From the NCBI GenBank assembly GCA_964602805.1, contig CAZRSJ010000001.1, forward strand, positions 59,727 to 123,726: a stretch of DNA of 64,000 nucleotides, read 5' to 3'. The stretch's first letter is position 1. Every line of letters starts with the position of its first letter. Source of the stretch: an uncultured Chromatiales bacterium (GTDB lineage Bacteria > Pseudomonadota > Gammaproteobacteria > Poriferisulfidales > Poriferisulfidaceae). The position numbers and the translations under genes are program-made. Below, piece by piece: positions 1,663 through 56,030 of this stretch. Under the pieces are notes generated by a model. That model was not told where the DNA came from. It was given only the letters and a program-made list of their open reading frames with translations, and did no database searches.

Positions 1663-2352
1663 TCACTCCGGCTTGTCGTTTTCTTGATCCGTCGCTGATG
1701 TCCGGCTTCCCCAACCATGCTCAACCGCGAGCACCGCTGCCGCGACCCGGGAAGTCACTTCCAATTTTCGCAAAATCGCCTTGACGTGAACCTTGACCGT
1801 GCCCTCGGAAATACCCAGGTTGTCTCCGATTCCACGATTGCTCAGGCCTTCTGCCAGCAGAGCCAGAATCTCTCTCTCCCGAGGGGTCAAAACATCAAAT
1901 GGACTCCCATCGCTTGCTGGAGGTTCCGGCTCCCGGCCCTGTACCACCCGGGCCAGCGCCGGTGTCAGGCTCGGCGCCACCACGGTCTCGCCCGCAACAG
2001 TGGAGCGCAACGCCATCACCAAGGCATCCGGCTCCATATCTTTCAGTAAATAGCCGCTGGCCCCGGAGCGCAGCGCTTCAATCAGATCTTGCTCCTCGTC
2101 ACTCGTGGTCAGCATCACCACCGGCGGACATTCCTCGCTCTCACGCAACCTCCGGAGGATTTCGAGCCCGTCAGTCTGTGGCAAACGCAAGTCCAGCAGC
2201 ACGATGTCCGGACGGCGCTTGGCGACCGCCGCATAACCGGACTCGGCATCCCCCACTGAATCCAATACTTTCAACCCATGGCGTTCCAGCAAGCCCTGCA
2301 GACCCTCTCGAAACAGGGTATGGTCATCGATGACGGTGACTGTCAGTGTCAT
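1663..2352 (-). CDS. NarL/FixJ-family response regulator (REC domain plus LuxR-type HTH)
   Basis: 229 aa. REC-domain motifs (VIDDH...DLRLP...DGLE) and C-terminal LuxR HTH (LTPREREILALLAEGLSNRGIGDNLGISEGTVKVHVKAILRKL). 4-nt overlap with the upstream kinase gene. Confidence 0.9.
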   Translation of the reverse strand: MTLTVTVIDDHTLFREGLQGLLERHGLKVLDSVGDAESGYAAVAKRRPDIVLLDLRLPQTDGLEILRRLRESEECPPVVMLTTSDEEQDLIEALRSGASGYLLKDMEPDALVMALRSTVAGETVVAPSLTPALARVVQGREPEPPASDGSPFDVLTPREREILALLAEGLSNRGIGDNLGISEGTVKVHVKAILRKLEVTSRVAAAVLAVEHGWGSRTSATDQENDKPE

Positions 2353-3272
2353 GCCGCCTTTGCCCTCTCCGGCATGGCCTTGAACTCAAGCAATATCCGC
2401 ACGCCCTCCTCCGGCTCGCTCTCCACCCGCAATCGCCCTCCCAAGCGCATCGCCCGGTCCTGCAACAGGCTCAATCCGATATGGGTCCCTCCTCCTTCCT
2501 CCGGCGGATTCGCAAACCCCACTCCGTCGTCTTCCACCAACACCCGGCAGTTCTCACTCTCCGCATCGCCTGAAATCAACACACGCACTGTACTGGCTTG
2601 GGCATGCTTGCGCGCATTGGCCAGAGCTTCCTGCACAATGCGCACAATTTGCAACTCGTGCTCAGCCGGCAGTTTCATATTCTCCCACTGAGTCTGCAGC
2701 AGCACGCGAACGTCCGGACAATCCCGCCGGAAGCGTTCCACCGTCCTTTCAATGGCCGGCAGCAGGCCTGCTTCACTGATCGGCACGCGAAAATGCGCAA
2801 TCAGTTCCCGCAACTCGATGTTGGCTTCTTCCAGGCTCTCCTCGATCCTTTCGAGTTCTTCCCAGGTTCGTTCTTCGTCTCCTTGATGCAAGGTTTCGTC
2901 CAGCACCCGTACTTGCATCTTGATTCCGGCTAGGGTCTGCGCTAAGGAATCATGCAGTTCCCCGGACAACCGGGTGCGTTCCTTCATGGCGGTAATGTCG
3001 CTGAATTCCTGCAACTGCTCTTCCGTATCCCGCGACAGGGTCTGAACCATTTCGGCAAGCACATTCAAGTCGGTCGCAAGTTCTGCGAAATCGCCTTTCG
3101 GCGGCACCGGCACTCTCGCCGACAGTTCACCCCCGCGCATGCGGAATACCCATTGCCGGATGGCTTCGTAAGGAGCCAGCCTTTGCCGGTACACCCAAAT
3201 CAAGAATGCGGCGGCGGCTCCCAGAAGCAGACCGGATACGATAAATCCTGGCGTGCCCAATCCAAGCATCAT
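2349..3272 (-). CDS. NarX/DegS-type sensor histidine kinase (HisKA_3 plus HATPase) with a single N-terminal TM helix and no periplasmic domain
   Basis: 307 aa. One N-terminal hydrophobic helix, then HAMP-like linker, H-box (SGELHDSLAQTL), N/G boxes (QEALANARKHA, DDGVGF). Overlaps neighbours by 4 nt on each side. Confidence 0.85.
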   Translation of the reverse strand: MMLGLGTPGFIVSGLLLGAAAAFLIWVYRQRLAPYEAIRQWVFRMRGGELSARVPVPPKGDFAELATDLNVLAEMVQTLSRDTEEQLQEFSDITAMKERTRLSGELHDSLAQTLAGIKMQVRVLDETLHQGDEERTWEELERIEESLEEANIELRELIAHFRVPISEAGLLPAIERTVERFRRDCPDVRVLLQTQWENMKLPAEHELQIVRIVQEALANARKHAQASTVRVLISGDAESENCRVLVEDDGVGFANPPEEGGGTHIGLSLLQDRAMRLGGRLRVESEPEEGVRILLEFKAMPERAKAA

Positions 3273-3730: not shown

Positions 3731-4378
3731 CTAGCCTGTTTCTTTGTGCTTCCTAGGGCAGAGTAGGTTATTCAAGCCAGAGGCAGCTATCTTCATCGTT
3801 TTATTCAAGGGGCGAAAGGTATGCAAAAACGAAATGAGAATTCTCCATTCCTTCTCATCGGAGAATCTCTCTGGTTTACAGAAATATTTTCGGCGCAAAT
3901 CGTCTGATGGGCTAGGAAGGCTATCTAGTTCCATGGTTTTGGTGTATTTCACCTCTCCCCACTCAACCGAAGTGATGCCTGGAGGCAGAGCATTCCTCAA
4001 GCGTTTCTCAAATTCACCGGGATCCTGCAACACACAGTAGTACTCACCAAATTTTTTCGTCGCCTCGACATCAGCACTAAAGCTCATCATGAACGCGGGT
4101 TGTATTGGCCTATCGTCGCTAACGTCACGGTGAAGTATCCCGCCTATTTTGTAACTGCCTACGCCTTCCATCACATCACCGACCTGGCCTTCTTTCTTTC
4201 GATAAAAGATAGGCGACCTAAACCAAAATATTCCTCTCGCATAAGAATCGACCGTTTTGTTATCGATCCCTCGATATAAACAGGCTGGCAATACTTCCAC
4301 AATTGATAAAGTTCGGTCGCGAGACAAACGAATATGTTCTTGCGTTATTATTTCATGTGCGGATAATTTTTGTCTCAA
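3731..4378 (-). CDS. Hypothetical protein (215 aa), no recognisable family; low-GC gene
   Basis: Long ORF with codon usage typical of AT-rich cargo DNA. No motif recognised by eye. Confidence 0.45.
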   Translation of the reverse strand: MRQKLSAHEIITQEHIRLSRDRTLSIVEVLPACLYRGIDNKTVDSYARGIFWFRSPIFYRKKEGQVGDVMEGVGSYKIGGILHRDVSDDRPIQPAFMMSFSADVEATKKFGEYYCVLQDPGEFEKRLRNALPPGITSVEWGEVKYTKTMELDSLPSPSDDLRRKYFCKPERFSDEKEWRILISFLHTFRPLNKTMKIAASGLNNLLCPRKHKETG

Positions 4379-4694: not shown

Positions 4695-5411
4695 TTGGCT
4701 TTACGCTGTGAGGCACTTTCCATGAACCTGCATCCGTTATTTTTCATAGCCCTTCCACTACCAGTTCACTACTTGCACAGAGCGATAGCCCTGATCCTAG
4801 CCATAGTAACGGTTTGTGCCGTTTCCTTTGTTCACGCCGAAACGGATTTTGAAAATCTGATTCGAGCCATGGAAGCTGACGAAGTGGCTTTGATGGAAAT
4901 TACCGGAACTGGCGGATCGACAGGGGATGTTCTAGAAGGCTATTTAGTCAATAAGACCTCAACCACCAAGAGACTGGACGTCCGGTTTGACTCACCCGTC
5001 TTTCTCTTGAACAGTGGTTCAGGACAGGACATGGTGGCAACACAAATTTTTGAGAAGGGCGGGGGATACTACATTGCGCCCGAAAATGACGGACGCCCTT
5101 TCATTCGCTTGAAGCCGAAAGAGAAATTGCCAATCTCGCTCTTCGCATACTGTGTCGACTTTGGCAAAGATAATCCGTCCAGAAACGATTTACTCACGGT
5201 CGGAAGGCTCCCTACACTTCTACTGAAAATCATGAGCAAGATATCCGCATACGAAGAACTCCCGCCTGATACCAGTACCATGAAGGGAGCGCAAGCCGCC
5301 TTGTGGTCAGCGCAAGGTGTCAATCTTGATGAGATTAAAAAGAAATTCAAACTTGATGCTGCAGATGAAGCAAAAATGCATCAAATTCTCGAAACCCTAG
5401 AACCCCATTGA
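4695..5411 (+). CDS. Hypothetical secreted/membrane-anchored protein (238 aa; an alternative start MNLHP at 4722 is possible)
   Basis: N-terminal hydrophobic segment (LILAIVTVCAVSFVHA) consistent with a signal peptide or anchor. No recognisable family. Low-GC. Confidence 0.45.
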   Translation: MALRCEALSMNLHPLFFIALPLPVHYLHRAIALILAIVTVCAVSFVHAETDFENLIRAMEADEVALMEITGTGGSTGDVLEGYLVNKTSTTKRLDVRFDSPVFLLNSGSGQDMVATQIFEKGGGYYIAPENDGRPFIRLKPKEKLPISLFAYCVDFGKDNPSRNDLLTVGRLPTLLLKIMSKISAYEELPPDTSTMKGAQAALWSAQGVNLDEIKKKFKLDAADEAKMHQILETLEPH

Positions 5412-5746: not shown

Positions 5747-7102
5747 ATGAGGAAACTTATGAGAAAAACTACTTTTTGCACGGGGCTGGCAATGGCAGCT
5801 GCGATGGCGTGGACCGTTCCGGCACTTGCGGATGAAACCTGCATGTCGCCGTACATTGCCAAGATTCAAGGCCAGGAAGATTACGTCTATGTCTGGACCT
5901 TGGGCGTGGAAGGCATGGGGGACGAGCAGGACAAGCTGGTCACCATCGACACCAACCCCGAATCCAAAACCTATGGCCAAGTAGTCAGCGTACTGTCCGT
6001 CGGTGGGCGCAACGAAGCGCACCATTCCGGACTGTCTGACGACCGTCATTACCTGTGGGCTGGCGGACTGGACTCGAGCAAGATCTTCGTGTTCGACATC
6101 CACAGCAACCCGCGGCAGCCGAAACTGCACAAGGTCATCACCGACTTCGTCGAGAAGTCCGGCGGACTGGTCGGCCCGCACACCTTCTTTGCTCTACCCG
6201 GGCGGATGATGATTACGGCGCTGTCCAACAACGTCGATCACGGCGGACGCACCGGCGTGGCTGAATACAACAACGATGGCGAATTCGTGGCGTCCCATTG
6301 GATGCCGACGGACGAAGACCTTCGCGGCGCGGTCAAGACCGGCCAGCACGCCGACGGCTACGGCTACGACCTCCGGGTCAAGGCTGAAAGCAACGTGATG
6401 CTGACCTCGTCCTTCACCGGCTGGTCCAACTACATGATGGACTTCGGCCAGATGCTGCAGGACAGTGCTGCTATGCAGCGCTTCGGCAACACCATGGTGG
6501 TGTGGGACATGCATGCCCGCAAGCCGCTCAAGGTGCTGGACGTGCCGGGGGCTCCACTGGAGATCCGTTGCGCCTGGGGTCCGGATAACCGCTACTGCTT
6601 CACCACGACGGCGCTGACCTCTCAGGTCTGGCTCCTGTACGAGGATGAAGCCGGCGAATGGCACGGCAAGGCTGTCGCCGATGTCGGTGTCCCTTCTGAA
6701 ATTCCCCTGCCGGTCGACATTTCCATTACGGCCGACGACACGGGGCTGTGGATCAACACCTTCATGGACGGCAAGACCCGCTTCTTCGATATTTCCGACC
6801 CGCATGCGCCCAAGCAGGTCTTCGAGGAAGTGATCGGAAGCCAGGTCAACATGGTCTCCCAGAGTTGGGACGGCGACCGCGTGTACTTCTCCAGCTCCCT
6901 GCTGAATAACTGGGACAAGACGGGTGAAGCAGACGAGCAGTACGTCAAGCTCTACCACTGGGATGGCGAAGCACTCGCTCATCAGTGGACGGTTGATTTC
7001 TATGCCGAGCAGTTGGGCCGTTCGCACCAGATGCGTTTCGGTGCCTATGCCCTGTATGGGAAGCGCCCGGATGCCGACACCCGGACCGCGATGGCCGAAT
7101 AA
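5747..7102 (+). CDS. mtoX: Selenium-binding protein SBP56 family / methanethiol oxidase, with signal peptide
   Basis: 451 aa. Signal peptide (AMAAAMAWTVPALA). Conserved SBP56 blocks throughout (HHSGLSDDRHYLWAGGLDSSKIFVFD, GPHTFFALPG, WDMHARKP, NRYCFTT, DGDRVYFSSSLLNNWD). RBS GAGGAAAC upstream. Confidence 0.9.
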   Translation: MRKLMRKTTFCTGLAMAAAMAWTVPALADETCMSPYIAKIQGQEDYVYVWTLGVEGMGDEQDKLVTIDTNPESKTYGQVVSVLSVGGRNEAHHSGLSDDRHYLWAGGLDSSKIFVFDIHSNPRQPKLHKVITDFVEKSGGLVGPHTFFALPGRMMITALSNNVDHGGRTGVAEYNNDGEFVASHWMPTDEDLRGAVKTGQHADGYGYDLRVKAESNVMLTSSFTGWSNYMMDFGQMLQDSAAMQRFGNTMVVWDMHARKPLKVLDVPGAPLEIRCAWGPDNRYCFTTTALTSQVWLLYEDEAGEWHGKAVADVGVPSEIPLPVDISITADDTGLWINTFMDGKTRFFDISDPHAPKQVFEEVIGSQVNMVSQSWDGDRVYFSSSLLNNWDKTGEADEQYVKLYHWDGEALAHQWTVDFYAEQLGRSHQMRFGAYALYGKRPDADTRTAMAE

Positions 7103-9791: not shown

Positions 9792-9823
9792 GCTGCAACA
9801 CTGCCTGCAAATCCACGCGACGG

Positions 9824-10651
9824 TCAGTCGCCCTCTTCTGCCAACAAGGCCTGCGTCAGCTCCAAAGCCTGCCGGTTCTGCCACACGTCGTGTACCCGGA
9901 AGATGCACGCCCCCGCGCAGAGCCCCCAGCCCGTCGTCACCACGGTCGCCGGCACCCTCTGACCCGGATCGGAAGCACCGGAAATTTCGCCCATGAACCG
10001 CTTGCGCGAAGTCCCGAGCAGCACCGGGTAACCCAATTCGACGATTTTGTTCAACTGCGCGATCAGCTGCAGGTTGTGTTCCGTCCGCTTCCCGAACCCG
10101 ATGCCCGGGTCGACGATGATCTTTCCGGATTCCACACCCGCCTGCTGCGCCACCTCGACTCGTTCCGCCAAAAACTCCCGCACTTCCTTGACGACATCGG
10201 AGTACTGGGGATCATCCTGCATCGTCTTGGGGGTCCCCTGCATGTGCATCAGGCAGTACGGCACATCCCGCTCGGCCACCAGCGAAAGTATTTCCGGATC
10301 GTCGCGTCCAGCAGAGACATCGTTGACCATCCCAGCCCCCGCATCAAGCGCTGCACCGGCGACTTCACTCAGCGTGGTATCCACGCTGACGAGCACTTCC
10401 CCAGGAACCGTCCTGCTCACCTGTTCCACGACGTCCAGAATGCGTCGCTTTTGTTCCGCTGCGTCCACTCGATCTGCACCCGGCCGGGTGGACTCGCCAC
10501 CGATATCGATCAGCGTCGCGCCCTCCTCCACCATCTCCAGTGCCCGCGCCAAAGCCCGGTCGGTGGAAGGATAGGCCCCGCCATCGGAGAAACTGTCCGG
10601 CGTCACGTTGAGAATCCCCATGATTCGGGGAATCTGAAAGAAGTCACTCAT
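9824..10651 (-). CDS. folP: Dihydropteroate synthase
   Basis: 275 aa. Pterin-binding blocks (GILNVTPDSFSDGG, IDIGGESTRPGA, GMVNDVSAG, DPGIGFGK). Confidence 0.9.
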   Translation of the reverse strand: MSDFFQIPRIMGILNVTPDSFSDGGAYPSTDRALARALEMVEEGATLIDIGGESTRPGADRVDAAEQKRRILDVVEQVSRTVPGEVLVSVDTTLSEVAGAALDAGAGMVNDVSAGRDDPEILSLVAERDVPYCLMHMQGTPKTMQDDPQYSDVVKEVREFLAERVEVAQQAGVESGKIIVDPGIGFGKRTEHNLQLIAQLNKIVELGYPVLLGTSRKRFMGEISGASDPGQRVPATVVTTGWGLCAGACIFRVHDVWQNRQALELTQALLAEEGD

Positions 10652-10714
10652 TAGTCGACATTACCGTTCGCATGCGTGTGGCGTAGTATCGCAAAACATC
10701 TCACTCGCAGGAAA

Positions 10715-11119
10715 TTAACTCTTAATCTCTATGCGCGACCGAAACCAGTCAGCCAGTTCACTTTCGCTAATCTCTCCCCCCGCAACCTCTTCCATAATCC
10801 TAATAGCATCGAAAGGATCGAATACGAGGCTCTGGTTATTGTCAACCAAAAACACGCGTGCCGTAACCCAGGCCGTACGCTTGTTGCCATCGACAAAACC
10901 ATGATTCCGGGCCAGGCCGAAAGCGTAAGCCGCAGCCAGTTCGGCGGCGTCCGGGTCGCCATAAGCGGAAAGATTTATCGGACGTGCTAACGCGGACTCG
11001 ATCACGCCAGAGTCGCGAATGCCGGATGCTCCACCATGCTCCGCAACTTGGCGATCATGGATCGCGAGAACGACAGGCAGGGCAACCCAACGCCATGGAC
11101 TAGAAATCTCCGCGCTCAC
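10715..11119 (-). CDS. doc: Doc (death-on-curing) family toxin, Fic fold
   Basis: 134 aa. Fic/Doc motif HGFVDGNKRTAW. 4-nt overlap with the upstream antitoxin gene. Confidence 0.85.
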   Translation of the reverse strand: MSAEISSPWRWVALPVVLAIHDRQVAEHGGASGIRDSGVIESALARPINLSAYGDPDAAELAAAYAFGLARNHGFVDGNKRTAWVTARVFLVDNNQSLVFDPFDAIRIMEEVAGGEISESELADWFRSRIEIKS

Positions 11120-11349
11120 TTGGCCAGAGCCCGCAATACCTCTCGGTCATCGTGCATTACTTTCTCCGCATGAGCCATCTGGCGTTCAAATTCAGGGTCG
11201 TACGGAGTCAACCGATAACTGCCATCCGGCGCCTCGGTCATGTATAGCATGTCGCCCTTCTCGACCCCAAGACGTGCCATCGCCTCTTTGGTCAAGATGA
11301 TGCCGGCGGAAGAACCCACCGTAGTTACTTTGAAAGACAGCATAATCAA
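11116..11349 (-). CDS. AbrB/MazE (SpoVT-AbrB) fold antitoxin partner of Doc (Phd-like)
   Basis: 77 aa. Swapped-hairpin N-terminal domain (KVTTVGSSAGIILTKEAMARLGVEKGDMLYM). Immediately upstream of doc. Confidence 0.75.
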   Translation of the reverse strand: MIMLSFKVTTVGSSAGIILTKEAMARLGVEKGDMLYMTEAPDGSYRLTPYDPEFERQMAHAEKVMHDDREVLRALAK

Positions 11350-11624
11350 ACCTCCGATCTTTATTATAACGGATATTATAATGTCTTGCGTGTAGCATCA
11401 GCAACGTTTACGACATCACGACCGCCTCATTTTGTGCTATTGTGAGCGAGTAGGCTGATTGTTTTCGCGGGGGCGGTTGCGTGTCCGAGTTTTATCCTCC
11501 CTAAATCGGTACCCTCCGTCCCCGCCTACTACACCACCCGAGAAAACACTACAGGCACCGCAGGCATATTGCGCCCGCAGTGCTCACGCGATATTGTTGA
11601 TCCCCTGCTTTTCCGATCGGGCGG

Positions 11625-11700
11625 TGGTGGGCCATCAGGGACTCGAACCCCGAACCTGCTGATTAAGAGTCAGTTGCTCTACCAATTGAGCTAATGGCCC
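11625..11700 (-). tRNA. tRNA-Lys (anticodon CUU)
   Basis: 76-nt cloverleaf read by hand: acceptor GGGCCAT/ATGGCCC, D-arm GCTC-AATTGGTA-GAGC, anticodon loop CTCTTAA, T-arm CGGGG-TTCGAGT-CCCTG, CCA encoded. Confidence 0.8.
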
Positions 11701-11709
11701 ATCCTGGGA

Positions 11710-11786
11710 TGGGGTGAGCGACGGGATTTGAACCCGCGACCTCAGGAGCCACAATCCTGTGCTCTACCGACTGAGCTACGCTCACC
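11710..11786 (-). tRNA. tRNA-His (anticodon GUG) with G-1
   Basis: 77 nt. G-1 pairs with C73. Acceptor GTGAGCG/CGCTCAC. Anticodon loop TTGTGGC. CCA encoded. Confidence 0.85.
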
Positions 11787-11796
11787 GCCGATCGAC

Positions 11797-11873
11797 TGGC
11801 GCGCCCGGCAGGACTCGAACCTGCGACCCTCGGTTTAGAAGACCGATGCTCTAATCCACTGAGCTACGGGCGC
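11797..11873 (-). tRNA. tRNA-Arg (anticodon UCU)
   Basis: 77 nt. Nearly identical framework to E. coli argU (GCGCCC..TAGCTCAGT.GGAT.AGAGCA...CTTCTAA...GCAGGTTCGA.TCCTGC.GGGCGCGCCA). Confidence 0.85.
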
Positions 11874-11910
11874 GATTCATCCTTGAGTCGAGACTCCGGA
11901 CACTGTCTGC

Positions 11911-11987
<77 letters not shown>

Positions 11988-12067
11988 CCGTGCGAAGTTT
12001 ATCAGATGGACGCCCCGGCACAGTCTTTCGTGCGGGGTCGGACCGCATGAAAACCGGCTGATCTGGT

Positions 12068-13426
12068 TTACGCCTTTCTCAAACGCCAGCCGTACATCAC
12101 CCGCCCGTAAAAGTTGAACCACTTCCTCGCTTCGGGGTCTTGGAACGGATAGTCCGCCCCGAGTTGTCTTGCCGTCACAAGGCCGGTCACGAAGCAGGTC
12201 TCCTGGCTGTTGATCAAGGTATGGGCGCCGCAGTGCCGCGTTCGTCTCTTGCCCTGAATGAAGCGGAACATGGGAACCAGAAGGATCACGTGGCGCACAT
12301 CGTGCACGATGTGCTGGAACCACCACTTCTTGATGACCTTGTCCTCGTCAATGTGGCTGATCGGATTGTAGGTCACCAGGCAGGGCTTGTCCGATTGCTT
12401 CGCCCAAGGCTGCTGGTTATGCATGATGTAGGTGATTTCGTAGTTGTCGGGCCTCGCCCCGTACTGTTCGATGTGGTTGCTCCGGGTGTCGAGTTCCTTG
12501 ACGTCGGTGTCCGGGAGAATCGAAGCATCCGAATGAATAATCGTATGGTTGTGCAGTTCGCTTTCATAGCGAATCGACGAGAGGAGCCATCTCTCAAGGA
12601 AGGTCGGCTTATCCAGCATCATCAGCGTCTGATTCGCGTTGCACGCGAAAATCACTTCGTCGAATGTCTCCGTTTGTCCGTTTTCATCCTCAACGACCAC
12701 ATCGGAGTCGCCTCGATACACTTTCCGAACCGGTCGGTCAAGATAGATCTTGTCCTGGAAATCAGCCGACAACTCTCGATAGATCCGCTGCGTGCCTTGG
12801 TCCCAGGTCTGCATCGGCGTCGCGCGTTCAATGTCGAAGAACTCCAGGTAGCGGGCGAACAGGGCCGCCGGCATGTCGAACACGTTCGTGGCCATCAGGA
12901 AGTTGACGAACATGGGCTTCAGGATCTTGTACCGGAAATCCCCGGACAACCCGCCCAGATTGAGAACCGTGCCCATACTGACGTAGTTGAACGGGTTGAG
13001 GGCGTTGAGCAGCTTGGATCTGGACCGATTGAGTTGGCCAAACCATTTGAGGCGTTTCAGGATCTTCTGGAACTTCTCGATTTCCGGTTGCAGTTGCCGC
13101 CTGATGTCGGAATCGAAATCGTGAGCGTAGACGCCGCCACGGTATTTCACGCTGTAGCTGAACTGGGTGTCCACCAGTTCGATCCCGTACTGCTTCAGGA
13201 TCAGGAGAATATGGTGGTATACCGTGGGAATGCACGCGGTGACGGAAATATCGAACGGAATCGAAGTCCCGTCTTCTTGCGGCATCTCAACCGTAACGGC
13301 ATTGCCGCCAAGCTGAGACTGTGCTTCGAACAATCGAAAATCGAATTGATTGGGGTGCCGATGAAGTGTCCAAGCTGCCCCCAATCCTGAAACTCCCCCG
13401 CCGATTATCGCAATTTTTTTTGGCAT
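12068..13426 (-). CDS. NAD(P)/FAD-dependent oxidoreductase (amine-oxidase-like Rossmann protein)
   Basis: 452 aa. N-terminal dinucleotide-binding motif KIAIIGGGVSGLGAAW...LFEA...LGGN. Divergent from the DUF2282 operon. Confidence 0.8.
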   Translation of the reverse strand: MPKKIAIIGGGVSGLGAAWTLHRHPNQFDFRLFEAQSQLGGNAVTVEMPQEDGTSIPFDISVTACIPTVYHHILLILKQYGIELVDTQFSYSVKYRGGVYAHDFDSDIRRQLQPEIEKFQKILKRLKWFGQLNRSRSKLLNALNPFNYVSMGTVLNLGGLSGDFRYKILKPMFVNFLMATNVFDMPAALFARYLEFFDIERATPMQTWDQGTQRIYRELSADFQDKIYLDRPVRKVYRGDSDVVVEDENGQTETFDEVIFACNANQTLMMLDKPTFLERWLLSSIRYESELHNHTIIHSDASILPDTDVKELDTRSNHIEQYGARPDNYEITYIMHNQQPWAKQSDKPCLVTYNPISHIDEDKVIKKWWFQHIVHDVRHVILLVPMFRFIQGKRRTRHCGAHTLINSQETCFVTGLVTARQLGADYPFQDPEARKWFNFYGRVMYGWRLRKA

Positions 13427-13681
13427 GGCTGCGTCCGCTTCACACGTGGCTTCTATCTGCCACTATCCGCGATTTCCTCCCGTGAAATTCGATGCCAGAC
13501 CCGGCATATGTTGCGGGAAATTATACGCAATGACCCCTAAACGACTGCAATCCGTGCCACCAAACCTCCGCTCACACCTGAAACTAGTGATGATTCTGGA
13601 CACGAGGGAACAAAAGGGTAACAATGCTGTCAATAGTCCAAGGGATTTATCCCCCCCTCTGTTAATCAACCTAAGGCAAAC

Positions 13682-13966
13682 ATGAAAAAATCACACTCTC
13701 TAGCATCCAGCCTGATTGTGCTGGCACTCGGCTCCGGCTTGGCTTCCACTTCCGCATTGGCGGTTCCCGATGCCCCCAAGAACTGGGAAAAATGCACGGG
13801 TATTTCCAAGGCCGGAATGAATGACTGTGGCGCGACGGATGGCGCTCACAGGTGTGCCGGCGCAGCTCCGGAAGATGGCATGGAAACCGAATGGATTTAT
13901 GTTCCGGAAGGCACCTGCGAGAAGATCGTGGGCGGGGCCATATACGCAGTCAAGCCTGCAAAATAA
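13682..13966 (+). CDS. bufA: DUF2282-family Sec-exported small Cys-rich protein (bufferin-type RiPP precursor, BufA-like)
   Basis: 94 aa. Signal peptide [27 protein letters not shown]. Core with four Cys in the family-typical contexts EKCTGI, NDCGA, HRCAG, GTCEKI. Confidence 0.85.
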
Positions 13967-13973
13967 CCCTTTG

Positions 13974-14810
13974 ATGCCTGCCGTAGACACGGCGACTCCA
14001 CTCACGGGAATGGGGGTCGGTTTACGCGGCCCCCACGTCCCGGACATCCTGCAGCAGAGCCCTGCGGTTCCTTGGTTCGAGCTTCTGACCGACAACCATT
14101 TGTGCGCAGGAGGTGCCCTCAGGTTTCAAGCCGAAGCCATTGCCGAACAATATCCGGTGGCCCTGCATGGCGTCAACCTTTCTCTCGGCGGTGTTGACCC
14201 GCTGGATCACGAATATCTTGGCCGGGTTCGGGCTCTCGCCAAAAACACCGGAGCCCGCCATGTCTCGGAACATCTTGCTTTCACGGCCTGCAACGGCGTC
14301 CACAGCCATGACCTCCTTCCATTGCCATGGACCGAAGAAGCCCTGCAACACGTAGCAGGTCGAATCTCCGAGGTTCAGGATTTTCTCGGCCAGAACATCC
14401 TGGTCGAGAACATTTCCACTTATCTGGAATACGAACATTCCACTCTGAGCGAAGGCGATTTCCTGCTGGAACTCTGTACGCGGACCGGTTGCAAACTTCT
14501 CCTGGACATCAACAACGTCTACGTCAACTCGGTCAACCACAACCACGATCCACACGACCTGTTGAACACCATGCCCTGGGCACATGTGCGCGAGGTTCAT
14601 CTGGCGGGCCACGAAGAACGCGATGGACTTTTGATCGATACGCACGGGGGATGCGTCTGTGATGAAGTCCTGAACCTTTTCCTGGACGTGGTCCCACGTA
14701 TCCCGGAGGTTCCGGTCCTGTTCGAGTGGGACACTTCGCTGCCTCCATGGCCCGTCGTCTGGCAGGAAACCCAGCGACTTGACAAGGCCTATCAGGCCGC
14801 GTGCGCATGA
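13974..14810 (+). CDS. bufB: DUF692 / UPF0276 TIM-barrel protein (multinuclear non-haem iron oxidative enzyme, MbnB/BufB-like)
   Basis: Start taken at ATG 13974, 8 nt after the bufA stop; the track ORF begins earlier, overlapping bufA. Conserved DUF692 blocks (GVGLR, HGVNLSLGG, VSEHLAF, LVENISTY, LLLDINNVYVN, REVHLAGH). Confidence 0.85.
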   Translation: MPAVDTATPLTGMGVGLRGPHVPDILQQSPAVPWFELLTDNHLCAGGALRFQAEAIAEQYPVALHGVNLSLGGVDPLDHEYLGRVRALAKNTGARHVSEHLAFTACNGVHSHDLLPLPWTEEALQHVAGRISEVQDFLGQNILVENISTYLEYEHSTLSEGDFLLELCTRTGCKLLLDINNVYVNSVNHNHDPHDLLNTMPWAHVREVHLAGHEERDGLLIDTHGGCVCDEVLNLFLDVVPRIPEVPVLFEWDTSLPPWPVVWQETQRLDKAYQAACA

Positions 14811-15613
14811 ATCTTGCGGAACTCCAGACCAAGATACTGGAAGCGGTAACCCGAACGGGAAGCGCAGACCCTGGGCTCGACTCCTTGATCCCTCCGGCCC
14901 GCGGCATTCGCCCGGAAATGCGACTGGATGCCTACCGGACCAACGTCAGAGGGGCGCATTTGGAAGCACTTGATGCCGCTTATCCGGTTACCCGGGAGGT
15001 CTTGGGGCCCCGGTATTGGCGACAACTTCTAGCACAAGAAATCCCGGCATTCGGTTCCCGTTCCCCGGATCTGCATGAATATGGCGATTTCCTGCCCGAA
15101 CTGCTCGGCCGGGTACAGGAAAGTCGCAAGGAATTAGCTGATCTCGATTATCTCGGTGAACTCGCGCAACTTGAATGGCAAGTCCATCTGGCACAATTCA
15201 AGGCACCGGATCCGGATTTTGACTGGGTCGCTTTTCAAGCCCTAGAATCGGATCACCAGATGCGGGTTCAGTTCACTCTGAGCCATGCATTGCACTTGAT
15301 GCGATTCTCTCAGCCCGTCGATGCACTTTGGCATTCCCATCAGGAAAATGGCCTGGATCTCCCACCCCAGTCTCCGGTGACCTGTTGCGTGCACAGGCAA
15401 AAATCGTTCGATGTGACTGTCACCCGGCTATCCGACAGCGATCAAAAGTTGCTGGAAGCGCTGGGCGAAGGTCAGTGTCTCGAAGCCTTGCCTGTCGGTG
15501 ATTCGCAAGCGGCAGTTGAGACGTTGTTCGACTGGATTCAGATCGGGTGGATAAGTGGCTTCTCGCGAGAGCCGGTCACACGAACATCAAAACCAATCCA
15601 GACTAGCACTTAG
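14801..15613 (+). CDS. bufC: DUF2063-family protein (partner of DUF692 enzymes, BufC-like)
   Basis: 270 aa. 10-nt overlap with the bufB end. N-terminal block LQTKILEAV...[19 protein letters not shown] typical of DUF2063. Confidence 0.8.
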
Positions 15614-16796
15614 TCAAACGTATCCGCGCCACACGGCGGCGTCCGACCTGCAATACGACCGGGTTATCAAAAGACAATTCGCATTTGGGATCACTGATTT
15701 TCTCTCCATCCATCCGGACGGCACCTGCCTCCATCATCCGCCGCGCATCCGAAGTCGAGGGGCACAACCCTGCCTGTTGAAGGGCATTCGGCAGAGGCAG
15801 CGCCTCTTCCGCCGTCAACTCGATCTCTTCCATATCTTCTGGCAACTGGTGGTCGCGGAAGCGCGCCGTAAAATCTTCCTGCGCCCGTTCGGCCGCTGTC
15901 TCGTCGTGGAATCGGGCAACGAGCTCCCGCGCTAGTTCCAGCTTTGCATCGCGCGGGTTCGCACCACCCTCGACCTGTTGCCGCAAGTCTTCGAGTTCCG
16001 AATCCGGCCGCAAACTCAGCAGATCGAAATACCGCCACATCATCGGATCCGACAGCGACATCAACTTGCCGAACATCTGTTCGGGCTCTTCCTGAATCCC
16101 GATGGCATTGTCGTAGGTCTTGGACATTTTCCTTACCCCATCGGTCCCTTCCAGGAGCGGCAGGGTCATCACGATCTGCGGTGGTTGCCCGCGCCGTTTC
16201 TGCAATTCCCGCCCGACCAGCAGATTGAATGTCTGGTCCGTCCCGCCTAGCTCCACATCCGCCTCCAGCATGACTGAATCGTAGCCCTGGATCAGTGGGT
16301 ACAGGAACTCGTGGATCGAAATCGGTTGGTTCTCGTCGTAGCGCTTGGAGAAATCGTCCCGCTCCAACATGCGCGCCACCGTCTGCTCGGAAGCCAGACG
16401 AATCAGGTCGTCCGGTGTCATCTGGTCCATCCACTCCGAGTTGAAGCGCACCTCGGTCTTCTCGCTGTCCAGCACCCTGAACGCCTGCTCCAGATAGGTC
16501 TTCTGGTTATCCTGCAACTCCTTCGCGGTCAGGATCGGGCGAGTGGCATTGCGACCGGATGGATCCCCGATGCGCCCCGTGAAATCCCCGACCAGGAAAA
16601 TCACCTGATGCCCAAGATCCTGAAATTGCCGCATTTTATGCATCAGCACCGTGTGGCCCAGATGCAGGTCCGGCGTGGTGGGATCAAACCCGACCTTGAC
16701 CCGGAGCGATCGTCCACCTTCCAGACGTTCGGCCAAATCCTCCTTGTGGAAAACTTGTTCAGTTCCACGGAGAAGTGCGGTGAGTTCAGTGTTCAA
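15603..16796 (-). CDS. tyrS: Tyrosine--tRNA ligase, type 2 (TyrZ-like)
   Basis: HIGH motif (PDLHLGHTV), KMSKT motif, C-terminal S4 domain. Start set at TTG 16794-16796 ([11 protein letters not shown]...), which reproduces the N-terminal length of Pseudomonas type-2 TyrS. The track ORF extends 33 codons further to another TTG. Confidence 0.85.
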
Positions 16797-50213: not shown

Positions 50214-51782
50214 ATGCACTCTTCTGATTCTCTGGTTATCCGTCGCGCGCTCCTGAGCGTTTCAGACAAGACTGGCATCGTCGACCTTGCCCGGACGCTG
50301 GCCGAGAACGGTATTGAACTGATCTCCACTGGCGGCACGGCCGCGATACTTCGCGAAGCGGGCTTGACGATTCGTGAGGTTTCCGAATTGACCGGCTTCC
50401 CGGAAATCATGGACGGACGGGTCAAGACTCTCCACCCCAAAGTGCACGGAGCCTTGTTGGCACGAGGTGAACAAGACCTTGATGTCTGCGCCCTGCATGG
50501 CATTGAGCCCATTGATCTCCTGGTGGTCAACCTTTACCCATTCGCTCAAACGGTTGCCAAACCAGATTGCGACTTCCAGGAAGCGATCGAGAAAATTGAT
50601 ATCGGCGGTCCTGCCATGTTGCGCGGCGCAGCCAAAAACCATGCACATTGCTGTGTTGTGATTGATCCTTCCGACTATGCCAGCATTGCCGAAATCGTCA
50701 GCACCGGAGAGGGTGTTAGCGAAGAGATCCGATTTGATCTTGCCGTCAAGGCCTTTTCGCATGTCGCAGCCTACGATTCCGACATTGCGCATTATCTTGG
50801 GTACCAACTTGAACCGGATAATTTTTTCGGGCAGGGCATGCATCTGACTCTGAAACGTCAATCCATGCTGCGCTATGGCGAGAATCCGCATCAACAAGCA
50901 GCGCTCTACAGTTTTGAGAATCCTCCACCAGGCTCCCTGACTGCCGCCACGCTTCATCAGGGGCAAGAACTCTCTTACAACAATCTTCTTGATACGGATG
51001 CAGCTTGGGAGTGTGTCCAGGCATTCGAAAAACCCGCCTGCGTCATCGTCAAGCACGCCAACCCCTGTGGCGTAGCGGAAGCACGCAATATTGAGGCTGC
51101 CTACGAAGGCGCTTACCGTACCGACCCAACTTCGGCATTTGGCGGGATTATCGCGTTCAATCGGATCGTGCCCGGCCCCCTCGCCCAGACCATCATCGAA
51201 CAGCAATTCGTGGAAGTGTTGATTGCGCCGAGTTTCCGGAAAAATGCACTGCAGGTCCTAGCCAAGAAACCTAAAGTGCGGGTACTTTCCGCAGGTACTC
51301 CCCAAGCGGGTAAGCAGTGTGCAACCGTGCGCAGCATCAGTGGCGGGCTACTTGGGCAAACCCCGGATCACGCACTTCTTGACCCTAAGGCGTTACGCAT
51401 GGTGACCAAACGCTCTCCAACCGAAGACGAACATCAGGATCTTCTGTTTGCCTGGAAAGTTGCCAAGTTCGTCAAGTCCAACGCCATTGTCTACGCACGC
51501 GACCGATGCACTGTCGGAGTTGGTGCGGGACAGATGAGCCGGATCTATTCTGCGCGAATCGCTACCATTAAGGCTGCCGACGAGAATCTTTCGCTAGACG
51601 GCGCCGTGATGGCTTCAGATGCGTTCTTCCCATTTCGAGATGGGGTTGATGCCGCCCACGAAGCTGGCATTACAGCAGTTATCCAACCGGGCGGCAGCAT
51701 GAGAGACGATGAAGTCATTGCCGCGGCCGATGAACACGGCATAGCGATGGTGTTCACAGGAATGCGTCATTTCCGGCATTAG
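50214..51782 (+). CDS. purH: Bifunctional AICAR transformylase / IMP cyclohydrolase
   Basis: 522 aa. MGS-like N-domain ([10 protein letters not shown]). AICARFT domain. Confidence 0.95.
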
Positions 51783-51825
51783 GCAGATATGTCAACAGCA
51801 TACACAGTCTGATTCACAGATTCGT

Positions 51826-52473
51826 TTACACAGAAGGCAACTCGAAAACTCGCCTAGCTATAAAAAGTCCGACAATTTTTGCCTTTGGAAAACATCTAGA
51901 TAGAACTGTTTCCATTGCTTGGAAGTGCGCTCCCGTCGTAAGAACATCATCAACAATGGCGATATAGTTGGGAATAGGCGTTAATAGGCTATTGTCTACA
52001 TCATAACGCTCCTGATATTGTTGAGGAGTAGGCCGTTTTTTTGTTTCGTGAGCGGCTTTGTAACTTCTTTGCTGGATGATGATTTCTCGAATATCCAACG
52101 GATGGTCTGGCCTAATGGTATACAACATTTTTGTCAGCCTGTCATCGTAAAGAGGATGTTTTTTAGCTTTCGATGGTGGAATCGGCACAAAAGTCAACTG
52201 CTCCAGTTGATTCTGAGTTAGGGCAACTCGAAATGCAGTTGCCACTTGTCTGATTGCTCGTTCTTTATGAGGCCAGTCTGGTGATTTTTTTCGGTCCAAT
52301 GATTTTTTAAAGTTTAAAATTAAACTATTGGTTTTACTGTAGGCATAACCTTGCTCTGCGGTGTATTCACCAAGAAAATAACAATTGTCAGTGTCTTCCA
52401 GATAATAATAATCTGACCGTGTCAGATCATCAATCTTGGTGAAGTGCGGGGGTAAGATGCTTTCGAATATCAT
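51826..52473 (-). CDS. Type-I phosphoribosyltransferase-domain protein (ComF-like PRTase; ShosT-like toxin candidate)
   Basis: C-terminal PRPP-binding motif IAIVDDVLTTGAHF. Start uncertain: the track ORF starts at 52509; MIFES at 52473 used here. Overlaps the upstream DprA-like gene by 44-80 nt. Confidence 0.6.
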   Translation of the reverse strand: MIFESILPPHFTKIDDLTRSDYYYLEDTDNCYFLGEYTAEQGYAYSKTNSLILNFKKSLDRKKSPDWPHKERAIRQVATAFRVALTQNQLEQLTFVPIPPSKAKKHPLYDDRLTKMLYTIRPDHPLDIREIIIQQRSYKAAHETKKRPTPQQYQERYDVDNSLLTPIPNYIAIVDDVLTTGAHFQAMETVLSRCFPKAKIVGLFIARRVFELPSV

Positions 52474-53338
52474 CGTAATCTCGAACTCGCAGGGCCCCTT
52501 TAGCGGCAAATTTTTCTGGCCAAGTTAGGCGCGAATTGCGAAAGCAACTATTAAGGATGAATAGTTTTCGCTTTTGGCGCAGTGCCGCACGTGCCTGAAA
52601 TAACGTTCCAGATGTTTCACTGGCCTCGACAATAATAGTTGCCTCCGTGAGTGCGGACATCGTTACATTACGTTCGGGAAAGAAAGTACGGTTATATCGG
52701 TAGTCCTGAGACTCATAACGCTGAAGCGGAACCTGGCTGATGACCAGAAAATGCTCTGAGATATAGCGCTGCAACTCAGCATTATCTTTCGGGTAGAAAT
52801 GCGAAAGTGGAGTACCTATTACTGCGATAGTTTTCCCTCCCCCTTCAATAGCGGTTGTATGGGCCACTTTGTCAATGCCAGCCGCTAACCCAGAAACAAT
52901 TGTGAATCCGTTTTGTACTAGTTGTTTCACTAGCTTTCGTGCTCGCGCGAGCCCTTCCTTAGTAGGGCGTCTAGTCCCCACTACCGCAACAGAGGGCGAT
53001 GCTACTAGATCCCACCAACCTTGATAGTACAGAAGTTCGACAGGATATGCTGCGTCTCTCAATTTTTTCGGATATTCTGCTCCACCGTATACACGCACCC
53101 CGAAATCATGAATACCGGCCTCTTCAAACTTTTGCTTTACGGAAACTGCACACTCATGAGCTTGCTCTTCCGGTACGAAACTTGATGGAATGCTACCGGG
53201 ATGACGAGCAAATTCTTCTGCCAACGATTTAAAAGTCGTTTCAGGCCTTGACCATAGCGCTTCATATGCCCCCATCTCATGAAATGGTGAAATGGCTGAA
53301 AGCCCATAATTCGCCCTTTCGAGTTCAAGATTAGACAT
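52430..53338 (-). CDS. DprA/Smf-family (SLOG Rossmann) protein lacking the C-terminal winged helix (ShosA-like antitoxin candidate)
   Basis: DprA Rossmann-core motifs YP..L......P.LLY..G......SPSVAVVGTRRPT..G...A..L...L...G..IVSGLAAGIDKVAHTTAIEGGGKTIAVIGT. ATG at 53336-53338 with GGGGAGA RBS. The track ORF begins 5 codons earlier at a TTG. Confidence 0.6.
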   Translation of the reverse strand: MSNLELERANYGLSAISPFHEMGAYEALWSRPETTFKSLAEEFARHPGSIPSSFVPEEQAHECAVSVKQKFEEAGIHDFGVRVYGGAEYPKKLRDAAYPVELLYYQGWWDLVASPSVAVVGTRRPTKEGLARARKLVKQLVQNGFTIVSGLAAGIDKVAHTTAIEGGGKTIAVIGTPLSHFYPKDNAELQRYISEHFLVISQVPLQRYESQDYRYNRTFFPERNVTMSALTEATIIVEASETSGTLFQARAALRQKRKLFILNSCFRNSRLTWPEKFAAKGALRVRDYDDIRKHLTPALHQD

Positions 53339-53446
53339 TACACATCTCCCCAATGAACATCATGTTGTCATGACAGTTCATACAATTTAAAAGTTTAGTA
53401 GTAGCATCTTTTTGGCAGAGATTCTACCAACTAAAAAGTTTTGAAC

Positions 53447-53980
53447 TTATCGATTGAAAGGTAGCTTGGCCAACATCATCGCCATCCCGCAGGAACCGGT
53501 AGCGCCCGAAAACAGAAGGCCTGCCCCAATGAAGCCAGACAATCCGAAAAACCCAGGATGAACCCATACTCCCAAGATGACACCCAGTAAAACCAAGCTG
53601 CCCGCCACAATCTGGACTTGGCGCATGATTTCGATCGGGGCCCCGGAATCTGAGGCGATCGGATAACCCGCTTTCTTCCAAGCCATGATGCCTCCCTCCA
53701 AGATATACGTCTCGGGGTAGCCAACGGCCGCAAGTTGATCCGCATGAACCTGCGTACGGCGACCGCTTCGGCAATGGAAAATTCCGATTTTCTGATGTGG
53801 CTCAGCTTTCAGGCCCGCTTCCAATCCGGTCAGGGGAATCCACCGCGCCTCTGGAATTCTCATCTGGCCGCGCTCCCCAGGGTCCCGAATATCAATCAAC
53901 TCGGCCCGACCTTCATCTAACCAGCGCCGGGCTTCGCTTACCTTGATTTCTTGAACATCCATCATCCGCCTCCGCGTCAT
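53447..53980 (-). CDS. Rhodanese domain fused to a DUF2892-type membrane anchor (YgaP-like)
   Basis: Rhodanese active-site loop CRSGRRT. C-terminal two TM helices with GxxxG-rich segment. Confidence 0.75.
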   Translation of the reverse strand: MTRRRMMDVQEIKVSEARRWLDEGRAELIDIRDPGERGQMRIPEARWIPLTGLEAGLKAEPHQKIGIFHCRSGRRTQVHADQLAAVGYPETYILEGGIMAWKKAGYPIASDSGAPIEIMRQVQIVAGSLVLLGVILGVWVHPGFFGLSGFIGAGLLFSGATGSCGMAMMLAKLPFNR

Positions 53981-54081
53981 TATTGCGATTGTACACCCGG
54001 CCCTTCCTAAAACCCAGACTGATTTCTCTCGGCTCTAACGGTAAGAATTCCGCATGTCTCCCATCCCACATAAACGCTCCA

Positions 54082-55704
54082 TCAACGTTTTATGTTTCGC
54101 GCCATCCCTAATGTGCTAACCCGACCCGCATTTCCAATTCCAGTCGGATCCGAAGAAGGTCCCAGCGCGTCCAACCCGCGCATGGCAGCATTACCTGCCG
54201 CATAAATCACCCACAACATTCCCAGAGGCAATAGCATGTGCAATGCCATCGTGCCGTAACCGAGCGCGACCCGATCCACTTCCCAGCGCCCGGCATCTCC
54301 AAGTTTCATGCCAGGGTACATCGCGTCAATCAACGCATCGTCGAGAAAGTTCGATATTCCGAACATCATTGAGAACAACCGAACGGCCACGATCATGACC
54401 ATGATTCGAAGGGCCGCCGTCAGGCTGTAGAACGTCAGGAACAGGTACGCTCCCAGCAGCATGTATAGCACCATCAATATCAAACTTTGTGCCATCGGCG
54501 CAATGCGCCGCATGATGTGCAACCGGGCGTACAAGCCCAAGGCCTCGGATCCGACGAAAGCCGTCGCGCCGACCGCGGTCGACAACGTGAATGCCGCCAG
54601 ACTTCCGCTTGCCGCCCAAGCGGCGAGGCCACTGGCAATTCCGGAACCCGCCGCGAATGCTGCCAGACCCGCCAATATCTCGTTGTCTGGTCCACCGATG
54701 CCGTAGCGGCGCGGACCATTGAGAATAGTGTTGCGGACCATTTGCTCTTCGATGAAATCCCGGCTGTAGGTTCCTTTCGTGAAATTCGCAATCCCGTCCA
54801 TGTCTGGCACAAAACGCACGAGAAGCTTCATCAATCCTTCATTCCGGTTGTTGCCGAGCCACCAGTCCCGGCAAACCGGCAACTGGCGGTCTCCCTTCCA
54901 GCGTTTGACTTCGGTCCGGGGCCGGGGATAGGAATCGAACGAACAGGGACCCTGCTCCGCGACCGCACTGCACAACGCGTAATAGCCGGGCTTTTCCAAG
55001 AAATAGCGATTTCCCGGATACTCGGCGTCTTTGCGCGACACGATTTCTTCTGGAGGCTGGAAAATTTCGTACTTCCGCCAAGCCGGCACGAAACATTGGC
55101 TGGCAAAATGGTCGAACTCCTGGCGGATGCCGGGATCCTTGATGAAAGCATGGCGGGTACGGAACGCGAGACCAGAATAATCCTGAAAACACGGTAAATG
55201 CCCTAGCACGGCTTGAGTGATGCCGCCACTAATCGACAGCACGACGGCCCAGAACATCGGGATCCTAGGGTGCTCTTCGTGAAAACGCGCCAACCGGGTG
55301 GTGTCGTATGTGGTGTCGGTGTCCCCGTACGTATGGGTCGCATCCCCAAGTTGGCAGACCGGCGTGTATTCGATTGAATTTGGTTCGACCTTGACGTAAG
55401 GCACCACCATGAAAACGAAGACCACTAGTGCGACCGGAAGGTCTACCCGCATCTGGCTGACGGAGCCACCGCTGTTGGGAAAAATGTTTTCGGTGCTAAG
55501 CGGAACGATGAAATTGCGAACGATGACGACCAGGAACGGAATCAGCAGCAGGTTCAGATCATCGGCCAACTCGAACAACAGTTCGTACATGCTCCACCCG
55601 AACATGGTCAGGTAGACTTCGATATAACTGAATGTCGGGATTGTCGCGTACATGCCCGTCAATCCAGATTGCGCAACAGCAGCAGGACCTCGTAAGCCAC
55701 GCAT
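54082..55704 (-). CDS. TraG_N-like polytopic membrane protein of ICE T4SS
   Basis: 540 aa. Multiple TM helices, large periplasmic loop with conserved Cys. Gly/Ala-rich TM cluster (GLAAFAAGSGIASGLAAWAASG). Confidence 0.55.
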   Translation of the reverse strand: MRGLRGPAAVAQSGLTGMYATIPTFSYIEVYLTMFGWSMYELLFELADDLNLLLIPFLVVIVRNFIVPLSTENIFPNSGGSVSQMRVDLPVALVVFVFMVVPYVKVEPNSIEYTPVCQLGDATHTYGDTDTTYDTTRLARFHEEHPRIPMFWAVVLSISGGITQAVLGHLPCFQDYSGLAFRTRHAFIKDPGIRQEFDHFASQCFVPAWRKYEIFQPPEEIVSRKDAEYPGNRYFLEKPGYYALCSAVAEQGPCSFDSYPRPRTEVKRWKGDRQLPVCRDWWLGNNRNEGLMKLLVRFVPDMDGIANFTKGTYSRDFIEEQMVRNTILNGPRRYGIGGPDNEILAGLAAFAAGSGIASGLAAWAASGSLAAFTLSTAVGATAFVGSEALGLYARLHIMRRIAPMAQSLILMVLYMLLGAYLFLTFYSLTAALRIMVMIVAVRLFSMMFGISNFLDDALIDAMYPGMKLGDAGRWEVDRVALGYGTMALHMLLPLGMLWVIYAAGNAAMRGLDALGPSSDPTGIGNAGRVSTLGMARNIKR

Positions 55705-56030
55705 ACCGCGACGACAGCGAACATCAACTGGCGTTGCTCAAGAAGAGACAGCGGCATATGCCCGCGTTCGGTTCGTTTTCGGTCGAGCCAGCTGACCAAT
55801 TGCGGCCAGCGCAGGATCAGGTACAGGTAGGTGGCACCATGCAAGCCGAGATGAAGCCAGAAGCCATAGCGTTCAAGAAATTCCCGCCACCGCGCCAGAT
55901 ACGTTGCCGTGCGATTCAGGTGTTCAGGCGTTGCGGCAGCCAACTGCTGCACGGCATAGATGAGCGCGATACCCAACACGAGGGTGGCTAACAACACCCC
56001 CAATATTCGGCGCGACCGGGGACCGGTCAT
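55659..56030 (-). CDS. Small ICE-associated membrane protein
   Basis: 123 aa, 3 hydrophobic helices. Overlaps neighbours on both sides. Confidence 0.4.
   Translation of the reverse strand: MTGPRSRRILGVLLATLVLGIALIYAVQQLAAATPEHLNRTATYLARWREFLERYGFWLHLGLHGATYLYLILRWPQLVSWLDRKRTERGHMPLSLLEQRQLMFAVVAVCVAYEVLLLLRNLD

Follow-up and report, generated by a model that had tools for sequence, protein, structure and literature searches.

The cassette and its two genes

The stretch of DNA analyzed here (hereafter the window) comprises 64,000 nucleotides (nt) of an uncultured Chromatiales bacterium of the family Poriferisulfidaceae (GenBank assembly GCA_964602805.1, contig CAZRSJ010000001.1, positions 59,727 to 123,726 of the forward strand). 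Between purH and a rhodanese gene it carries a short low-GC cassette with two overlapping genes on the minus strand, the first coding for a DprA-like protein and the second for a phosphoribosyltransferase (PRTase). Based on the evidence presented below, this cassette is very likely a two-gene toxin-antitoxin module of the ShosTA family, in a short form, and of the kind that defends against phages by abortive infection. Its components are (positions are those of the window):

51783..53445, no strand assigned: strain-variable low-GC cassette (insertion or replacement), delimited by empty-site relatives and by composition
52430..53338, minus strand: shosA-like gene, predicted antitoxin, 302 amino acids (aa), ATG at 53338, alternative TTG start at 53353
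51826..52473, minus strand: shosT-like gene, predicted toxin, 215 aa, ATG at 52473, alternative TTG start at 52509
52430..52473, minus strand: gene overlap of 44 nt (80 nt with the TTG starts), the toxin start codon lying inside the 3′ end of the antitoxin gene
51922..51963, minus strand: codons of the phosphoribosyl pyrophosphate (PRPP)-binding loop IAIVDDVLTTGAHF, residues 171–184 including D175/D176, placed by family alignment
53339..53446, minus strand: upstream intergenic region, 108 nt, with a Shine-Dalgarno GGAG and a block kept in three syntenic alleles

The open reading frame (ORF) of the DprA-like protein spans 52430..53353, the GGAG precedes the ATG at 53338, and a 302-aa gene call for the same protein is also present in public assemblies. 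The PRTase ORF spans 51826..52509 and the exact 215-aa protein is found in public assemblies; these gene calls, together with the family-wide conservation of residues 3–15, support the ATG at 52473 as the real start. An earlier reading of this DNA, made from the letters alone (hereafter the sequence-only reading), had described two overlapping genes, the first with the DprA/Smf Rossmann core motifs AVVGTRRPT, IVSGLAAGIDKVAHTTAIEGGG and IAVIGT and the second with the type-I PRTase PRPP loop given above; all four motifs were found in the two ORFs, and both the gene layout and the two motif assignments hold. Among 80 related loci, the toxin start mostly falls 20–47 nt inside the upstream gene, a range that rests on heuristic start calls and has outliers from read-through ORFs. 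The 44-nt overlap suggests that translation of the toxin may be coupled to that of the antitoxin.

The same reading had proposed an AT-rich insert of about 1.6 kb with atypical composition at 51783–53446, which was right to within 1 nt. The GC content of 51783–53445 is 0.437 compared with 0.576 in the whole window, the minimum among all 1663-nt windows of the 64 kb (mean 0.576, standard deviation 0.034), and GC at third codon positions is 0.36–0.39 in the cassette genes vs. 0.57–0.72 in the neighboring ones. A tblastn search of both proteins against the window gave no paralogues and no other dprA, and an Rfam scan of 51000–54500 returned nothing, neither a retron non-coding RNA nor a riboswitch.

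Assignment to the ShosTA family

The validated Escherichia coli APEC O1 system (pFR105), recovered through its published sequence and RefSeq record, was used as the reference. PADLOC, which the sequence-only reading had named as a check on its ShosTA-like candidate, calls the window pair as ShosA plus ShosT: the DprA-like protein matches the ShosA model PDLC03961 at E = 5e-101 (residues 27–301 of 307, profile positions 18–294 of 303) and the PRTase matches the ShosT model PDLC03962 at E = 1.4e-46 over nearly its full length, ShosT being the only PADLOC result for this protein. The APEC O1 proteins match the same two models, ShosA (327 aa) at 2e-85 and ShosT (424 aa) at 1.8e-53. As the validated pair and the window pair share them, PDLC03961 and PDLC03962 are family-wide models that cover both forms. 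The ShosTA system that PADLOC detects is that of Millman 2022 and Rousset 2022. The APEC O1 proteins also match the E. coli-specific models PDLC02997 and PDLC03012, of which the former gave a weak match and the latter no match with the window proteins. The candidate thus stands, the toxin being linked to ShosT by its fold, by the family model that it shares with the E. coli protein and by a weak match between profiles.

In its organization the cassette resembles the E. coli systems (APEC O1, in a P2-prophage hotspot, and KTE181), which are likewise two-gene operons in which the DprA-like gene precedes the PRTase gene, and both occur in accessory, mobile contexts. The E. coli genes lie 1 nt apart, whereas those of the window overlap by 44 nt. 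Structures are available for E. coli ShosA (PDB 8zva/9vzo) and ShosT (8zvb-d). In the searchable literature, every tested ShosTA has a 424-aa toxin in which an HAD/pyrophosphatase part is joined to the PRTase (Rousset et al. and Pu et al. used APEC O1, Yang et al. KTE181), and the tested E. coli members protect against T7 and lambda (PMC9122126, PMC11961720).

Two other defense systems with related components were considered. PsyrTA/RqlHI, which combines a DprA-like antitoxin with a RecQ-helicase/PRTase-type toxin, shares the DprA-like antitoxin, and the window protein matches PsyrA at 4.6e-25. This system was rejected, as the PsyrA match falls short of that to ShosA by about 75 orders of magnitude, PsyrT gave no match and there is no helicase ORF. 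Its toxin-antitoxin logic has been linked to phage defense (bioRxiv 10.1101/2022.05.11.491447). The PRTase effectors of retrons (e.g., type III-A3, Retron-Eco11) are similar in being toxic PRTase-fold effectors of abortive infection; a retron was rejected given the lack of a reverse transcriptase ORF, the empty Rfam scan and the PADLOC call of ShosT only.

The predicted single-domain toxin

E. coli ShosT is a HAD-like pyrophosphatase (residues 1–164) fused to a PRTase (165–424) (PMC11961720, PMC12961424). The 215-aa toxin of the window is, in contrast, a single domain that has neither the N-terminal HAD/pyrophosphatase domain nor the C-terminal extension, and pairwise it is similar to the 424-aa two-domain protein in the PRPP loop only. 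A Pfam search with the PRTase protein gave no match. The AlphaFold2 model (pLDDT 89.6) has a PRTase fold for which Foldseek places ComF (Helicobacter pylori ComF, 7p0h, as the best match) and E. coli ShosT nearest, ahead of housekeeping PRTases. In an alignment of 35 family sequences, there is no variation at D175, D176 and G181 and almost none at T179 and H183. The two aspartates fall on D331/D332 of E. coli ShosT, whose mutation abolishes toxicity (PMC11961720, PMC12961424). The protein contains only two cysteines and no CxxC motifs, so that the zinc finger of ComF is not present. Taken together, the alignment and the model indicate a PRTase of the ComF/ShosT branch with an intact PRPP-binding site.

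The short-form family gave 946 matches in a database clustered at 90% identity, compared with 111 for the E. coli form with the same tool; at 50% clustering it has 2404 representatives, 741 of them below 1e-30 and nearly all of 200–230 aa. The single-domain form thus appears to be much the commoner one in databases, about nine times by match counts.

The predicted DprA-like antitoxin

The DprA-like protein matches Pfam DNA_processg_A (PF02481) at E = 7e-57 (192 bits, cut-off 29.6) and gives a weak SLOG (LDcluster4) signal. Its AlphaFold2 model (pLDDT 78.7, with low confidence restricted to the last 5 residues) consists of a helical N-terminal domain and a Rossmann/SLOG DprA domain, and the best PDB folds are Streptococcus pneumoniae DprA (3uqz, E = 4e-17) and E. 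coli ShosA (8zva, E = 4e-15). The C-terminal winged helix is missing, as the sequence-only reading had stated; its absence is not diagnostic, since S. pneumoniae DprA has no winged helix either.

Alignment of both proteins to their E. coli counterparts, as that reading had also suggested, was informative for one of them: the antitoxin is 32% identical to ShosA over the Rossmann core, whereas the toxin aligned pairwise in the PRPP loop alone. E. coli ShosA R139, R234 and R261, which were tested for binding of single-stranded DNA (ssDNA) and for antitoxin function (PMC11961720, PMC12961424), align with R123, R223 and R250 of the window antitoxin; R123 and R223 are invariant and R250 is kept in 26 of the 27 family members, so the ssDNA-binding arginines are conserved. 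The RecA contact K200 of the E. coli protein aligns with K184, a position that is K or R across the family.

Distribution and mobility of the gene pair

The pairing was surveyed at 80 genomic loci from one-per-species genomes of Acidobacteriota, Alpha- and Gammaproteobacteria, Chloroflexota, Bacteroidota and others. A ShosA-like gene (50–72% identical) lies directly upstream of the PRTase homologue, on the same strand, at 77 of them. Homologous pairs are also carried by P2-like Burkholderia phages (between integrase and cos in the P2-like Burkholderia phage Mana), by Ralstonia and Pseudomonas phages, and by plasmids of E. coli and other hosts, and these phage- and plasmid-borne pairs match PDLC03961/PDLC03962 too. 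One pair is flanked by two integrases, and another is found on a 65-kb circular contig that carries Tn3 and a resolvase, where it adjoins SNF2/NOV_C and HEPN_Swt1/DUF499 genes. Together with the presence/absence pattern described below, this shows a conserved unit of two genes that moves horizontally, varies between strains and is dispensable.

Strain variability and exchange of toxin alleles

Contigs of close relatives were obtained through purH proteins of the same 90% cluster. In three of them (L087, L089 and L090) the site is empty: purH and the rhodanese gene are separated by 69 nt, the cassette is not present, and the alignment to the window ends at 51782 and restarts at 53446. The 69-nt spacer has nothing in common with the cassette ends, which argues that it was replaced rather than split. 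The cassette occupies the same site in L085 and L088, as well as in L086, where it additionally contains an IS110 element. It is therefore a true strain-variable indel, present or absent among near-identical strains. The more distant relative L094, whose flanking proteins are 83–94% identical, has the cassette at the identical site. The insertion is therefore old in this lineage, and either some strains have lost the cassette or it has been exchanged by way of the flanks, which are conserved. A repeat search around the cassette found no target-site duplication and no terminal inverted repeats, only short matches at chance level; the simplest explanation of the insertion would be homologous exchange via the flanks shared with relatives.

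The toxin gene has a history of its own. When the window is compared with L085, amino acid identity is 93–98% for the flanking proteins and 88% for ShosA but only 60% for ShosT, and nucleotide identity drops from ~90% to 66–70% exactly across the toxin gene (window 51800–52470, compared with L085 9580–10230 and L094 8001–8651). L085 and L094, on the other hand, have flanks that are ~80% identical and toxin genes that are 84–90% identical. From these mosaic identities, in which the toxin classes disagree with the phylogeny of the flanks, we infer at least two toxin allele classes that were exchanged independently of the antitoxin, the breakpoints falling close to the stop codon of purH and to the gene overlap. 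A swap of toxins under one antitoxin would fit an indirect (type IV) neutralization better than a co-evolving binding pair.

In L086, a 1456-nt IS110-family element (9695–11150) splits the ShosT gene within the PRPP loop (VDDIL|TTGAH) and leaves the antitoxin intact. This contig is otherwise 99.9% identical to L085, which has an intact toxin gene and comes from the same sample (ERZ25069580). A knock-out of this kind would be expected if the gene does harm when nothing restrains it, but it is one event only.

Genomic neighborhood

The cassette is bounded by genes that occur in relatives with and without it, and a conjugation module of an integrative and conjugative element (ICE) follows to the right:

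50214..51782, plus strand: purH, core gene, left boundary outside the cassette (Pfam MGS and AICARFT_IMPCHas in relatives)
53447..53980, minus strand: rhodanese/YgaP-like gene, right boundary outside the cassette, also in cassette-free relatives
54082–63983, minus strand: ICE conjugation module, PFGI-1/ICEclc-like class (traC_PFL_4706, TIGR03755, TIGR03752, TIGR03749, TraG_N)

purH is kept in relatives both with and without the cassette, and no def, fmt, smf or topA context exists at the locus, in agreement with the statement of the sequence-only reading that the dprA-like gene lies outside the canonical def/fmt/smf setting. The match to TIGR03744 (traC_PFL_4706) reaches 847 bits (cut-off 520.6); further conjugation matches right of the rhodanese gene are TIGR03755, TIGR03752, TIGR03749, TraG_N and TraU, and the module extends to the end of the window, with no integrase or attachment site located. 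The insert had been described as abutting the ICE module. ICE genes are indeed nearby, but the rhodanese gene intervenes, and it is retained in L090 although the tra genes are not present there. As this relative keeps the rhodanese gene and has another island in place of the tra genes, the cassette is outside the ICE, at the edge of a variable region. The L090 island (10553–16399) carries NOV_C, an SNF2-like helicase, a BglII/BamHI-type endonuclease and an N6/N4 methyltransferase, and with these restriction-modification, SNF2 and NOV_C genes following the rhodanese gene, the purH-rhodanese junction is a variable or defense hotspot. The L090 contig is 1.55 Mb long and its name ends in _c (possibly circular).

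Some further features of the region were recorded. A CCDC90-like gene (160–202 aa) lies between the rhodanese gene and TraG_N in L087, L089 and L094; it is missing from the window, where ~100 nt separate the two, so that a further small indel exists at the junction. A second low-GC stretch (~0.46) at about 3400–5500 of the window contains the ORFs 3731..4378 (minus strand) and 4695..5411 (plus strand), which gave no Pfam or PADLOC match; its neighbors are a two-component pair of the LuxR type (1663..3272) and a gene for an SBP56 selenium-binding protein (5747..7102). Four tRNA genes (Lys-CTT, His-GTG, Arg-TCT and Pro-TGG) are clustered at 11625–11987 on the minus strand.

Counter-evidence and alternative explanations

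A number of results weigh against the assignment to ShosTA. For the toxin, phmmer against PDB sequences gave no match even at E = 1, BLASTP against E. coli ShosT recovered only the PRPP loop and was not significant, and the same was true for hhalign with a narrow profile of 25 sequences. With 35 short-form and 32 E. coli-type sequences, hhalign gave a weak match (probability 41.6%, E = 2.7e-4), limited to the PRTase domain, in which short-form residues 25–212 lie co-linearly on residues 173–362 of E. coli ShosT, D175/D176 pair with D331/D332, and the invariant S46/K56 pair with the invariant S197/K205. For the antitoxin, S. pneumoniae DprA is a closer match than E. coli ShosA. The RecA contact R206 of the latter aligns with an invariant Q190, the dimer-interface residues L181/F182 align with E165/G166, and in the alignment the window protein ends ~10–14 residues before the tail of E. 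coli ShosA. Its RecA and dimer interfaces may therefore differ from those of E. coli ShosA, this region resembling S. pneumoniae DprA more, and without the dimer-interface residues, R206 and the C-terminal tail, the trigger logic may also differ. In addition, a scan for consensus sigma-70 promoters and for terminators found nothing upstream of shosA, and the scanned region as a whole scored no better than shuffled sequence; some family members are located among ordinary metabolic genes; and the searchable literature contains no experiments on the short form.

In natural transformation, ssDNA is bound by DprA, which also loads RecA; ComF, a protein with the PRTase fold, belongs to the same pathway. 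Ordinary competence genes, i.e., DprA and ComFC acting in natural transformation, would explain the Pfam match to DNA_processg_A and the folds of both proteins, whose best structural matches are a DprA and a ComF. We give this explanation scarcely any credence and rejected it on the curated cut-offs, the cassette-free relatives and the mobility of the pair. The DprA-like protein reaches 164.4 bits with the dprA model TIGR00732 (cut-off 191.15) and 131.2 bits with the E. coli-type DprA model NF008007 (cut-off 495), while the PRTase reaches 18.8 bits with the comF model TIGR00201 (cut-off 233.55). The latter also lacks the ComF zinc finger, although its fold is nearest to ComF, the type named by the sequence-only reading. 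Moreover, the genes form an overlapping operon of atypical base composition away from any def/fmt/smf/topA context, they are not present in close relatives, homologous pairs travel on phages and plasmids, and the toxin alleles have been swapped and, once, disrupted by an insertion sequence. The preference of the sequence-only reading for an acquired, mobile ShosTA-type module over competence genes is supported by the same cut-offs, strain variability and phage and plasmid homologues. The defense pair rather looks like a derived version of the DprA-ComFC partnership.

An addiction module that has no role in phage defense in this host, persists because its loss harms the cell, and may help to retain the ICE or variable region, is an explanation we regard as quite unlikely, even though the cassette is one gene away from the ICE conjugation module and beside a variable region, homologues occur on plasmids and on the Tn3-bearing circular contig, and an overlapping, antitoxin-first order is typical of such modules. 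Loss is evidently tolerated, since close relatives lost or never had the cassette. In L090 both the cassette and the tra genes are missing; the two co-vary there, and the cassette is not tied to retention of the tra genes. The protection against T7 and lambda by the tested E. coli family members (PMC9122126, PMC11961720) and the homologues in phage hotspots and beside defense-type genes also speak for defense. Addiction and defense roles are, however, mutually compatible. Still less probable, in our estimate, is that the DprA-like protein is a sensor of phage ssDNA or of a nucleotide-derived ligand (through its SLOG fold) that activates the PRTase, with the latter possibly acting on nucleic acid like the ssDNA-binding ComF. 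The sensor model was first put forward by Rousset et al. (PMC9122126); this explanation also draws on the weak SLOG signal and on the fact that no acceptor base was found for E. coli ShosT (PMC11961720, PMC12961424). It is at odds with the toxicity of E. coli ShosT alone and its relief by ShosA, which is thus an antitoxin and not an activator (PMC11961720, PMC12961424), with the L086 element in a toxin gene next to a kept antitoxin, which agrees with a toxin that does harm unless restrained, and with the absence of the ComF zinc finger in a protein with only two cysteines.

Proposed mechanism

For the ShosTA module favored here, a working model can be drawn by analogy to E. coli ShosTA, for which an indirect (type IV) neutralization was reported (PMC11961720, PMC12961424). 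The PRTase would consume PRPP or transfer from it, thereby perturbing nucleotide metabolism or DNA replication and causing toxicity, and the DprA-like protein would not sequester the toxin but would act against the damage on the DNA itself, by binding ssDNA and by RecA-linked repair, which would make the system a type IV toxin-antitoxin. The 44-nt overlap would couple translation of the toxin to that of the antitoxin. An infecting phage, through a shut-off of host expression or through its ssDNA or replication intermediates, would then free the toxicity, and the infection would be aborted. As the toxin has no fused pyrophosphatase, the pyrophosphate would presumably be removed by a host enzyme; such a reliance is plausible, given that E. 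coli ShosT with the R56A pyrophosphatase mutation showed little reduction in toxicity (PMC11961720).

The disordered C-terminal tail of E. coli ShosA was linked to the instability of the antitoxin (Pu 2025; Yang 2026). Because the short form has no such unstable tail, the shut-off trigger of Pu et al. may not apply to it, and the ssDNA competition of Yang et al. may matter more. A further and rather unlikely possibility is that the short form works unlike E. coli ShosTA altogether: no fused pyrophosphatase would be needed, and toxin classes only 60% identical would be exchangeable under one antitoxin because the latter neutralizes a shared downstream lesion. This lesion could be a PRPP-dependent modification or engagement of ssDNA, with the DprA-like protein shielding or repairing the ssDNA, an idea that comes from ComF as the nearest fold and from the lack of a known base acceptor for any ShosT.

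Implications

The kind of system is already known and standard defense finders would call the cassette, so that the present results are a confirmation with added detail; for the annotation of this genome, they turn "DprA plus hypothetical protein" into a predicted defense/toxin-antitoxin call. All mechanistic work on ShosTA has been carried out on the two-domain E. coli toxin, while the single-domain form has about nine times more database matches and occurs across many phyla as well as on phages and plasmids. The naturally occurring toxin swap and the insertion-sequence knock-out described here provide ready material on the question whether neutralization in this family is indirect (type IV).

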